Made by a program: the position numbers and the translations under genes
Source of the DNA: Cyanobacteria bacterium SZAS-4
Lineage (GTDB): Bacteria; Cyanobacteriota; Vampirovibrionia; Obscuribacterales; Obscuribacteraceae
Length of the DNA: 64,000 nt
Assembly (NCBI GenBank): GCA_018266255.1
Contig: JAFEAT010000010.1
Coordinates: 394,842-458,841 of the forward strand
Direction of reading: 5' to 3'
The notes under the pieces: generated by a model
Told to the model about the DNA's origin: nothing
Databases searched by the model: none
The model's input: only the letters and a program-made list of their open reading frames with translations
In this document: piece after piece, positions 17,746 through 19,995 of the stretch
Position numbering within the stretch: the first letter of the stretch is position 1
Layout of the letters: every line of letters starts with the position of its first letter

Positions 17746-19995
17746 ATGGGACGATCAGAAAATTTATTTCATCCACCTGTTGGTTTGCCACCAACTGAAA
17801 CAAAGCAAGATTTCAACCCGTCTGAGCCGCCGCTCAACGCCACCGCCGGTGATATCGCTAGCCGTGAGGTGCAACAACTGGCATTTGCAGATGGGCGGGA
17901 GCGTTCATCGCGACGTTCTGAAGGGGCATCGACAGGCCGGGACCCCGGTACTACATCAGGCAGACTTCCCGTCGCTCCCGTGGAAGTCCCCAGCAAGCAG
18001 GCTGGTCTGCCGGACCTGATCATCGTTAACGGAGAGGGGAACAGACCCGAGTACCGCACAGTTACTCCCAGAGATGGTTCCAGCCCGGAACTTCGTGCGG
18101 TCGCCACGGTGAGAGATTTGGGTGCGAATGTCGTCTTTGATGACAATAAGCAAATTTCCAAAATTAGTTATCCCGCAGAAAACAAAACACGTGAGTTCGG
18201 TCGTGATGAAAATGGCGAGATCAACAAGTTGGTGACGACCACTCCACGCGGACAATTTAGCTATGTCAAGGAGGACGGGCGCTGGCTCTATCTGGCACCA
18301 GATCACAAGAAATACGTAGCTCCTGATTTTTCACTCGACGACAATGGCGAATTTTCCAAGTCTACGGCTGACGGAGTTGTTCTGACGCAGCGTCCCGATG
18401 GAAGATTGTTCAACGAGGAGCGCACCGCCCTTGGTGCCCGCATCCAGAGGGATGTTGACGGTAATCCTGTCACCGTTAAACGCCCAGACAACACTTCGAT
18501 TACGGCAACGTACGAGTGTGGTCGGCTCGCCAAGCTGGTCGATAGCCAGGATGGGGCGTCGATAACATGGACTCCTGATGGAAAGGGAAACTGGCGTAGC
18601 GATGATGTGCCGCCACAAACAGTGCAAAACATGCGCTTGGAACACAACGGCAATCTCTCTTACACTTCCGATAAGAGCAAATACACTATTCGCGGAAACG
18701 GCGCAGAAATTGAAGAAAACGCTACGCGTTCTCGATACACTTTTGATGACCAGGGGCGAATCAGCTCAATCAAATATCCAGGCGGGAAGGCTGCTCTTAG
18801 TTTCGGTTACCTTGGATCCGACGACAAGCCGTCATTCATTCAAGTGGATGACTTGCAGAAGCACGAAAGCAAGCGGTTTATTCATCAGCCAGACAAAGGC
18901 GGCTGGACAGGACTCGACCGAAACAACAACTTACTCGGAACATGGAAGGGAGCGGTAAAACTCAGTGATGACGGTTCGTATGCCATCAAGCCTGCAGTCG
19001 GCAATTCGACGACCTATTTGCCCGATGGAACCACAAGAACAGAGCAGGCGAAAGCAACTCTCAAGCCAGTTGATACACCAGAAACGGAGAAGCCTGAGAC
19101 CAGAAGACCTGAAGTCAGAAGACCGGAAGTCAGAAGACCGGAAGTCAGAAGACCGGAAGTCGGAAGACCTGAAGTCAGAAGTCCTGAAACCGACAAACCT
19201 GAAACTAGAAAACCTGAAACTAGAAAACCTGAAACTGAAAGACCACCTGCAACACCTGACGTTCAAAACGAAAATGAAATAACCGATCATTCTTTCCAGT
19301 TGAAGGGTTACATGCTTCCTTCGCCGGATCAGCTGGGAGCTGGTTCCTGTCTGTATATGTCCGCAACGGGAATTGCAGAGTACCTGATCAATAAATCCAA
19401 AGGTATAGTCAATCCACAAGTTGGTGGTGCTACAGATCTATCCGAACAGTGGACAATAAATCTGAGCAAGACAGTGCAATTGGGTAACAATTACACAGAT
19501 GCGCCCGAGCTTTTAGCGAGAGCCGGAGCGCTTCCTGACTCGCGCATGAAATTCCGGGCTTACGCCAGCTCATCGTGGATGAGTGAACCAGCAATTGGTG
19601 GGCGCGGTACCGAAGCTCTGCCACCATTCAAAAAGGACGTTCTATTCAATGGTGGTGGCGAGGGCTCGCAAAACGCACATGGACAGATGCGCCCAGCCGA
19701 TCTGGAGCGTATCAAAAAATATCTGCGTGAGAATCAGTCACCGGTATTGTTCGTCTACAAACCGCCCACCGCAAACTGGTGGCATGCAAACATCATCACT
19801 GGTTACGACGATAAGACGCAGTCATTCACGGTTAGAGATTCGTCGTTCGGAAGACAAGTCTCGAATGCACCTGCATACAACTATGATGGACGGTCACCAT
19901 ACGGACCGAAACCGTATCGCAATGAGACGCAAATGCCTTACTATCAAGTGCTCCAATGGGGCAATCATGCAACCGGATACAAATTAGCAAACTAG
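17746..19995 (+). CDS. Modular protein: Pro-rich N-terminus, YD-like repeats, PE(T/V)xx pentapeptide linker, C-terminal papain-like (C1-type) cysteine peptidase domain
   Basis: 749 aa with no signal peptide. One YD-like repeat is RYTFDDQGRISSIKYPGGKAALSFGY. The catalytic constellation resembles papain: Q-x5-C (DQLGAGSC, Cys535 at 19348-19350), His680 in WWHANIITGYDD (19783-19785), and Asp698 in VRDSSFG in place of the NSWG Asn. Confidence 0.75.
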   Translation: MGRSENLFHPPVGLPPTETKQDFNPSEPPLNATAGDIASREVQQLAFADGRERSSRRSEGASTGRDPGTTSGRLPVAPVEVPSKQAGLPDLIIVNGEGNRPEYRTVTPRDGSSPELRAVATVRDLGANVVFDDNKQISKISYPAENKTREFGRDENGEINKLVTTTPRGQFSYVKEDGRWLYLAPDHKKYVAPDFSLDDNGEFSKSTADGVVLTQRPDGRLFNEERTALGARIQRDVDGNPVTVKRPDNTSITATYECGRLAKLVDSQDGASITWTPDGKGNWRSDDVPPQTVQNMRLEHNGNLSYTSDKSKYTIRGNGAEIEENATRSRYTFDDQGRISSIKYPGGKAALSFGYLGSDDKPSFIQVDDLQKHESKRFIHQPDKGGWTGLDRNNNLLGTWKGAVKLSDDGSYAIKPAVGNSTTYLPDGTTRTEQAKATLKPVDTPETEKPETRRPEVRRPEVRRPEVRRPEVGRPEVRSPETDKPETRKPETRKPETERPPATPDVQNENEITDHSFQLKGYMLPSPDQLGAGSCLYMSATGIAEYLINKSKGIVNPQVGGATDLSEQWTINLSKTVQLGNNYTDAPELLARAGALPDSRMKFRAYASSSWMSEPAIGGRGTEALPPFKKDVLFNGGGEGSQNAHGQMRPADLERIKKYLRENQSPVLFVYKPPTANWWHANIITGYDDKTQSFTVRDSSFGRQVSNAPAYNYDGRSPYGPKPYRNETQMPYYQVLQWGNHATGYKLAN
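19078..19242 (+). repeat. In-frame 15-nt tandem repeat (11 units) encoding PE(T/V)xx pentapeptides
   Basis: Encodes PETEK PETRR PEVRR x3 PEVGR PEVRS PETDK PETRK x2 PETER. Three consecutive units are nucleotide-identical (agaagaccggaagtc), as are two others (agaaaacctgaaact). Confidence 0.95.

Follow-up and report, generated by a model that had tools for sequence, protein, structure and literature searches.

We analysed a 64,000-nucleotide stretch of the metagenome-assembled genome (MAG) 'Cyanobacteria bacterium SZAS-4' (contig JAFEAT010000010.1, positions 394,842 to 458,841; hereafter the window), and in it a single gene whose product, here called the YD-protease, carries a papain-like domain (the head) at its C-terminus, behind a module of YD/RHS-type repeats. 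Its sequence matches that of hypothetical protein JST89_11815 of this MAG at 100% identity; the MAG is listed as unclassified Cyanobacteriota in NCBI and has Candidatus Obscuribacterales / Melainabacteria MAGs as its nearest genomic relatives. The bacterium, one of the Obscuribacterales, is an uncultured, non-photosynthetic cyanobacterium, and non-photosynthetic cyanobacteria have almost no cultured members. The ATG at 17746 is the first start codon downstream of an in-frame stop, and the GC content of the gene equals that of its flanks, indicating a native composition. Borders between regions were drawn from two AlphaFold (AF2) models, one of the full-length protein and one of the head alone, and the mapping of residues to codons was verified. 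The gene is organised as follows.

17746..19995 (+): open reading frame (ORF) of the YD-protease, 749 amino acids (aa) plus stop
17746..18114 (+): N-terminal region, aa 1-123, P/R/G/S-rich and predicted disordered (AF2 pLDDT 25-33)
18115..19044 (+): YD/RHS-type beta module, aa 124-433, 33 predicted strands (AF2 pLDDT 75-93)
19045..19275 (+): Pro/Glu/Arg-rich spacer, aa 434-510, 77 aa, predicted disordered or extended
19276..19992 (+): papain (C1)-like head, aa 511-749, 239 aa (head-alone AF2 model, pLDDT 84, pTM 0.86)
19330-19332 and 19348-19350 (+): codons of the predicted oxyanion Gln529 and nucleophile Cys535, motif DQLGAGSC
19783-19785 and 19837-19839 (+): codons of the predicted general base His680 (WHANIITGYDD) and orienting Asp698 (VRDSSFG)

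No confident contact between domains was seen in the full-length model, in which the head was poorly modelled. There are only two cysteines in the 749 residues, and the single cysteine of the head is the predicted catalytic Cys535.

An initial annotation, made from the DNA sequence, had proposed a C-terminal papain-type peptidase built on these four residues, and we found all of them at the residues that it had given. A Foldseek comparison of the head model with the PDB returned C1 peptidases at all of the top 50 positions (E-value 5e-7 to 4e-5, probability 1.0, TM-score 0.48-0.62), including Lpg2622, xylellain, cathepsins K/L/S/V, rhodesain and papain, and no NlpC/P60, OTU, transglutaminase or YopJ-type fold was present among them. 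In the model, Cys535 (domain residue 25) lies at the N-terminus of a long central helix (domain residues 25-42), His680 opens strand 170-178 and Asp698 follows strand 183-187 (domain numbering), the two strands being consecutive, as in the papain topology. We additionally built a profile from 25 family heads, which reached cathepsin L/K sequences with an E-value of ~2e-5, aligning over the (Y)V.P..NQ..CGSC active-site helix (family consensus kdYvlpspdQedagsClymaaTgilE) and pairing WHAnvivGY in the His region with NHAVLAVGY of cathepsin K. The structural and profile comparisons are clear, whereas searches with the single sequence scarcely detect the head.

When 1.84 billion representatives were searched exhaustively with a hidden Markov model, no more than 175 proteins (clusters at 50% identity) matched at E<=1e-3, and from these matches (head-family proteins P0029-P0166) we drew a 63-sequence alignment. 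Among these divergent relatives, at ~17-25% identity at the lowest, the sole invariant columns were Q529, C535, H680 and D698, so that the Gln/Cys/His/Asp pattern is far beyond chance and the Cys and His on which the papain-type proposal turned are conserved throughout. Three of the 63 relatives touch Peptidase_C1 in Pfam weakly (best E-value 3.6e-4), and no NCBIfam model matches the head or the 25 family heads. The third catalytic residue is predicted to be an Asp, in place of the Asn usual in C1A, and a conserved GNHA motif (N740/H741) lies near the C-terminus of the head. No match to Inhibitor_I29 or another prodomain was found in Pfam, and the Pro-rich spacer directly precedes the head. 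On the strength of the Foldseek, profile and invariance results, of the weak matches in 3 of 63 relatives, and of the absence of a Pfam C1 match for the YD-protease, we place the head, from its sequence and modelled structure, as a distant relative of family C1 in clan CA that previously had no model, apparently papain-like in its working and a non-member by the curated model. Judged from the same comparisons, it is very likely an active cysteine protease.

For the region upstream of the head, the proposed YD/RHS repeats proved genuine. The YD unit YTFDDQGRISSIKYPGG at aa 331-347 lies inside a Pfam RHS_repeat match at aa 327-348 (18724-18789), which scores 31.6 bits (cut-off 22), rising to 38 bits when the sub-sequence is the query; a match to TIGR01643 falls just under its cut-off. 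The modelled fold of the module matched Rhs effectors of the type VI secretion system (T6SS; Tse15, RhsA, Tse5, RhsP), which were the best Foldseek matches, as well as teneurin YD shells and Tc BC, at E-values of 7e-11 to 1e-6, with alignments covering 325-430 columns of Rhs chains of ~1000-1400 residues. Its ~310 aa and 33 strands indicate an open strip rather than a closed cocoon, and from the model we regard the module as RHS-like, non-cocoon and presumably open. No DPxG(L/W) core-end autoproteolysis motif was found in the whole protein (regular expression DP.G[LWFIM]), nor did Pfam identify a PAAR, VgrG, SpvB or other trafficking domain in the YD-protease, or any domain in aa 1-100. In two homologs (P0011 and P0023) the YD module has been enlarged by internal duplication, with the head constant.

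The linker noted between module and head is also real. The spacer consists of (PEVRR)x5 and (PETRK)x3-4, of the general form (PExR[RK])n, and is encoded by 15-bp tandem repeats at 19088-19240 that differ in copy number and sequence among orthologs. An antisense ORF that runs through it (18931..19419, minus strand, 162 aa) is a low-complexity mirror of these repeats and almost certainly no gene.

As initially described, the protein lacks a signal peptide. We found no Sec or Tat signal at its N-terminus and no transmembrane-like segment anywhere by hydropathy, the maximum over 11 residues in the first 45 aa being 0.35, versus at least 2.0 in signal-bearing relatives. Ordinary signal peptides are present on neighbouring genes of the window, such as a subtilase at 8122 and a phosphatase at 33566, indicating that the absence is real and specific to the YD-protease. 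Within aa 1-123, orthologs have in common just the initial ~25 aa (MGRSEN...GLPP) and an LP(D/E)L.IV motif, and in a search of the other proteins of the Obscuribacterales loci, the N-terminal motif was carried by the orthologs alone. N-myristoylation of the MGRSEN start was considered and set aside, as the PROSITE-type rule disfavours Arg or Asp at position 3.

Upstream of the gene, we noted three head-to-tail 16-nt direct repeats, ACTAARTCCKCCKTTT, at 17684-17731 (+), ending 14 nt before the ATG, each holding a CCUCC or CCGCC core resembling an anti-Shine-Dalgarno sequence (3 matches versus 0.14 expected by chance). They were examined as a response-regulator site or an anti-Shine-Dalgarno-like leader, and are absent upstream of the orthologs in two of the syntenic loci (L001 and L002); lacking conservation among orthologous loci, they do not belong to the conserved system.

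We identified 12 full-length homologs of the YD-protease at 47-81% identity, every one of them from a metagenome or a MAG of Melainabacteria type. Conservation is highest in the head: among orthologs, identity to the YD-protease is 82-98% in the head (66% in the most distant ortholog), 52-89% in the YD module, 23-69% in the spacer and 19-66% in the N-terminus. The head is, by this sequence comparison, under very strong purifying selection. We found no case of this YD module paired with other heads, in searches whose sensitivity was poor (0 homologs with the module alone as query, versus 12 with the full-length protein), and a metagenome scan with a YD-module alignment returned one truncated locus only, which is uninformative on polymorphism.

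Gene order around the YD-protease is kept down to ~50% identity in the four orthologous loci compared. The syntenic order upstream is a ~550-aa hypothetical protein, a LysM protein, an OmpR-type response regulator (-) and a CHASE3 histidine kinase (+), followed by the YD-protease (+); downstream it continues with pyruvate kinase (pyk, -), a GH57 branching enzyme (-), a DAHP_synth_1-family gene (+) and an Asp_protease_2-TPR protein (+). The exceptions are an unrelated 147-aa gene in one locus and two genes inserted upstream in another. The regulator/kinase pair adjoins the YD-protease in three of the four orthologous loci, and in the P0011 locus two genes separate kinase from protease. The convergent pyk gene reported downstream was confirmed at 20066..21508 (-), 70 bp from the YD-protease (Pfam PK, 1e-114), and its position means that no same-strand ORF can follow. 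Accordingly with the first description of the locus, no conserved small downstream gene that could serve as an immunity partner is present in the window or in any of the four syntenic orthologous loci; a 53-aa ORF at 17559..17720 and the antisense ORF at 18931..19419 were considered as immunity candidates and rejected as repeat or intergenic artefacts. PADLOC defence models gave no match. The conserved gene order and the lack of a conserved small downstream gene lead us to describe the YD-protease gene, from these sequence comparisons, as stable and vertically inherited, specific to a lineage of Obscuribacterales (Melainabacteria) from soil and peat, and without an immunity partner.

Several other genes of the window deserve mention. 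Two of the conserved upstream neighbours, a 556-aa protein without a Pfam match (11671-13341, +) and the 301-aa LysM protein (14205-15110, +), are signal-less; a signal-less peptidoglycan-binding LysM protein is odd, and it may share an export route with the YD-protease. The 843-aa protein at 24574-27105 (+) has two retropepsin-like Asp_protease_2 domains and TPR repeats, and its place in the synteny is unchanged in every orthologous locus that was examined. At 27632-33334 (+) lies a 1900-aa ORF with no obvious signal peptide, whose only Pfam matches are to a C-terminal Zeta_toxin / AAA_33 kinase (aa ~1704-1836), and which may be another large effector-like protein. The signal-bearing dual-specificity phosphatase at 33566-34174 (-) matches Pfam Tc-R-P ('polymorphic toxin system DSP-PTPase') and PTP-NADK, and recurs at the margin of two syntenic loci, L001 and L031. 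Finally, two MAGs named 'Drouetiella sp.' (L005 and L007; DATNPY01 and DATNPZ01) carry an Obscuribacterales-type syntenic locus. Drouetiella is a photosynthetic filamentous cyanobacterium, and the label on these MAGs is probably wrong.

We investigated the wider distribution of the head in ~98 relatives with a full domain, in which it is nearly always C-terminal. The modules ahead of it include leucine-rich repeats (LRRs; 12 of the 63 aligned relatives), Big_2 and GEVED, or a lipobox alone. Two types of member can be distinguished. In 61 relatives with a clear signal peptide or lipobox, the head has ~300 aa and a median of three cysteines, and the catalytic His and Asp are separated by an insert of ~60 aa with a conserved Cys pair, which from its sequence pattern is probably a disulfide. 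The signal-less Melainabacteria clade, to which the YD-protease belongs, has a ~240-aa head with the catalytic Cys only and no Cys-pair insert. The distant relatives are labelled as Halobacteriovorax, Bacteriovoracaceae, Oligoflexia and Myxococcales, and as several 'Deltaproteobacteria' and 'Rickettsiales' MAGs, and two distant lipoprotein members lie in unrelated contexts with no conserved partner. A literature search for a papain-type protease of Bdellovibrio returned only BdpK, a serine protease that is irrelevant here.

In two other Melainabacteria MAGs, the head is preceded by other N-terminal regions and by another Pro-rich repeat, PPVAEPPAIRSQ (L008, 5850-8762, +; L009, 3942-8777). In the former, the genes adjoining the head resemble, by eye only, a toxin-antitoxin pair and an excisionase; in the latter, YD-like segments are divided among several ORFs upstream, perhaps as a result of decay or frameshifts.

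What, then, might the YD-protease do? The reading we prefer, and to which we give about an even chance, is a protease tethered to a binding module that acts on foreign proteins and is exported by a non-Sec route. The C1-like head would perform thiol-dependent hydrolysis of peptide bonds, with Cys535 and His680 as an ion pair, Asp698 in the orienting role and Gln529 in the oxyanion hole. The open YD strip of ~310 residues would most likely be a binding or targeting platform, like the LRR or Ig modules of relatives, and the charged Pro-rich repeat a flexible, extended spacer of variable length that tethers the head. That the protein has neither a Sec signal nor disulfide cysteines points to export by a route other than Sec, or to a site of action that is reducing, for instance the cytosol of a target cell. 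The substrates would be foreign proteins from prey, a host or a competitor, and the producer would then have no need of an immunity partner. A non-self target, as the initial annotation had suggested, is plausible given the absence of an immunity gene from the four syntenic loci and the occurrence of relatives in predator-labelled MAGs; toxins used against hosts typically have no immunity genes (PMC3482391).

Several observations tell against this reading. For the enzyme itself, Peptidase_C1 (PF00112) does not match the YD-protease even at E<=10, and the only Pfam match of the head is a sub-threshold one to Peptidase_C39_2 (16.3-18.6 bits versus a cut-off of 24), although this spans the His/Asp third only and the structural neighbours of the head are C1, not C39. 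Only one of the five AF2 head models was confident (84 versus 62-68). For the proposed role, the apparent distribution in predatory lineages is taken from MAG labels, the very high conservation of the head is unlike that of arms-race effectors, and no secretion-system, chaperone or adaptor genes are present in the 64-kb window. The housekeeping neighbourhood (suf, pyk, GH57 branching enzyme, DAHP_synth_1) suits a core cellular function equally well.

It is to such a function that the one serious rival, in our view rather unlikely, appeals. The YD-protease would be an intracellular enzyme whose cleavage is regulated and serves housekeeping or regulation, perhaps controlled by the neighbouring CHASE3 kinase and OmpR-type regulator, with the YD module recruiting the substrate. 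The protein has no signal peptide or transmembrane segment and two cysteines in all; it is vertically inherited within a housekeeping synteny, beside a regulator/kinase pair in three of four loci, and its head is under very strong purifying selection. Signal-less prokaryotic C1A peptidases have indeed been considered intracellular (PMC10380794). Against this, YD/RHS repeats and Pro-rich tandem spacers are, as a matter of general knowledge, overwhelmingly extracytoplasmic or delivered, the distant relatives of the head are, with few exceptions, secreted proteins or lipoproteins, and a papain-type endopeptidase with neither propeptide nor inhibitor partner would be hazardous in the cytoplasm. 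The two genes between kinase and protease in the P0011 locus additionally indicate that the link between them is not strict.

The preferred reading of an exported, tethered protease can be drawn more sharply, to a form that we consider unlikely. The signal-less, disulfide-free Obscuribacterales clade would then be an effector that is translocated on contact, by a route other than Sec, and so reaches the reducing cytosol of prey or host, with the YD strip for targeting and the conserved extreme N-terminus as export signal. Were this so, soil Melainabacteria would be predatory or parasitic, like Vampirovibrio, and the YD-protease would represent both a new deployment of YD repeats and a novel family of C1-like effectors that Bdellovibrio-like and myxobacterial predators also possess.

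A papain fold might also perform chemistry other than peptide-bond hydrolysis, as an amidase, an isopeptidase/deubiquitinase, a transglutaminase or an acyltransferase. Many activities of this kind are known from clan CA scaffolds with Cys-His-Asp (PMC10318531), the divergence of the head is too great for Pfam C1, and the profile matches the effector proteases GtgE (E-value 0.002-0.01) and AvrRpt2 (E-value 1.3) weakly. The top 50 structural matches are nonetheless all C1A endopeptidases, and the Gln-x5-Cys arrangement and its flanking motif align with cathepsins, making this alternative quite improbable.

The weakest alternative is a classic Rhs polymorphic toxin, whose YD shell would enclose the protease, release it by autoproteolysis and be delivered into neighbours by a T6SS or Tc-like route: it has in its favour the above-threshold RHS_repeat match, the T6SS Rhs effectors as best Foldseek matches of the module and the known papain-like Tox-PL1 heads on RHS proteins (PMC3482391), but is largely refuted, and very improbable, given a module far shorter than Rhs chains, the lack of a DPxG(L/W) motif and of any trafficking domain, the 77-aa disordered spacer between repeats and head, a head that is conserved and not polymorphic, the missing immunity gene, the native composition and the stable synteny. 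The architecture of repeats with a variable C-terminal enzyme, which the initial annotation had recognised in this protein, is not supported: the head is the most conserved region, and the gene lies in a housekeeping synteny rather than a toxin island.

These results define a C1-like family for which there was no existing Pfam or NCBIfam model, and whose four catalytic residues, fixed by invariance, make it annotatable and testable. New, too, is the combination of a C1-like head with a YD module that is short and not a cocoon, the two being linked by a tandem-repeat spacer, indicating that YD repeats can be used as a short open module on a conserved enzyme, and advising caution in calling every protein with YD repeats and an enzyme an Rhs toxin. 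We additionally describe as new the inverted pattern of conservation, and the split between signal-less members with a single Cys and signal-bearing members with a Cys pair, a split that gives a hint of how non-photosynthetic cyanobacteria deploy proteases. Bacterial C1 peptidases such as xylellain and Lpg2622 were already known (PMC10380794), and the YD-protease is best seen as an annotation lead and a hint about the lifestyle of the Obscuribacterales, not as a categorical surprise.

Among known systems, the best structural matches of the head are Lpg2622 of Legionella pneumophila (PDB 6a0n/6a0q) and xylellain of Xylella fastidiosa (PDB 3ois), at E-values of 5e-7 to 1e-6 and TM-scores up to 0.62. 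All three are bacterial, single-head enzymes and share the arrangement of Gln, Cys, His and an Asn or Asp. Sequence identity to the head is ~13%, however, and the head lies under the PF00112 threshold, has no detected propeptide, uses Asp for Asn and has no Cys beyond the nucleophile. The head studied here also has a YD module and a repeat spacer fused in front of it; and Lpg2622 is listed in the literature among type II secretion substrates, whereas the YD-protease has no signal peptide.

Cathepsins L/K/S/V and papain (MEROPS C1A) have the same Gln-Cys spacing of six as the head, and match its fold with probability 1.0 and a TM-score of ~0.55. In contrast to these enzymes, the head has no I29 propeptide and no disulfides, has Asp in place of Asn, and bears the extra C-terminal GNHA (N740/H741). 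For the translocated clan CA effector proteases GtgE of Salmonella and AvrRpt2 (C70), similarity is weak and sub-significant, and is found over the His/Asp half of the head. They resemble the YD-protease in having neither a Sec signal nor disulfides, but the N-terminal half of the head aligns with cathepsins, and the YD-protease has no type III secretion system context.

Finally, the YD-protease shares with Rhs/YD toxins (the T6SS Rhs effectors, Tc toxin BC and WapA, and those with Tox-PL1 heads) an arrangement in which YD/RHS repeats stand N-terminal to a papain-fold enzyme, and RHS proteins with papain-fold heads of the Tox-PL1 type are on record (PMC3482391). The Tox-PL1 signature is NC-H-DxQ, in contrast to Q-x5-C...H...D here, and the repeats of the YD-protease are short and presumably open, with no DPxG motif, plug, PAAR or trafficking domain. 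In polymorphic toxins, the C-terminal toxin is the variable part (PMC3482391). The YD-protease, a stable and vertically inherited gene with no immunity partner, reverses this pattern, its head being the most conserved part of the protein while the YD module, N-terminus and spacer diverge faster.

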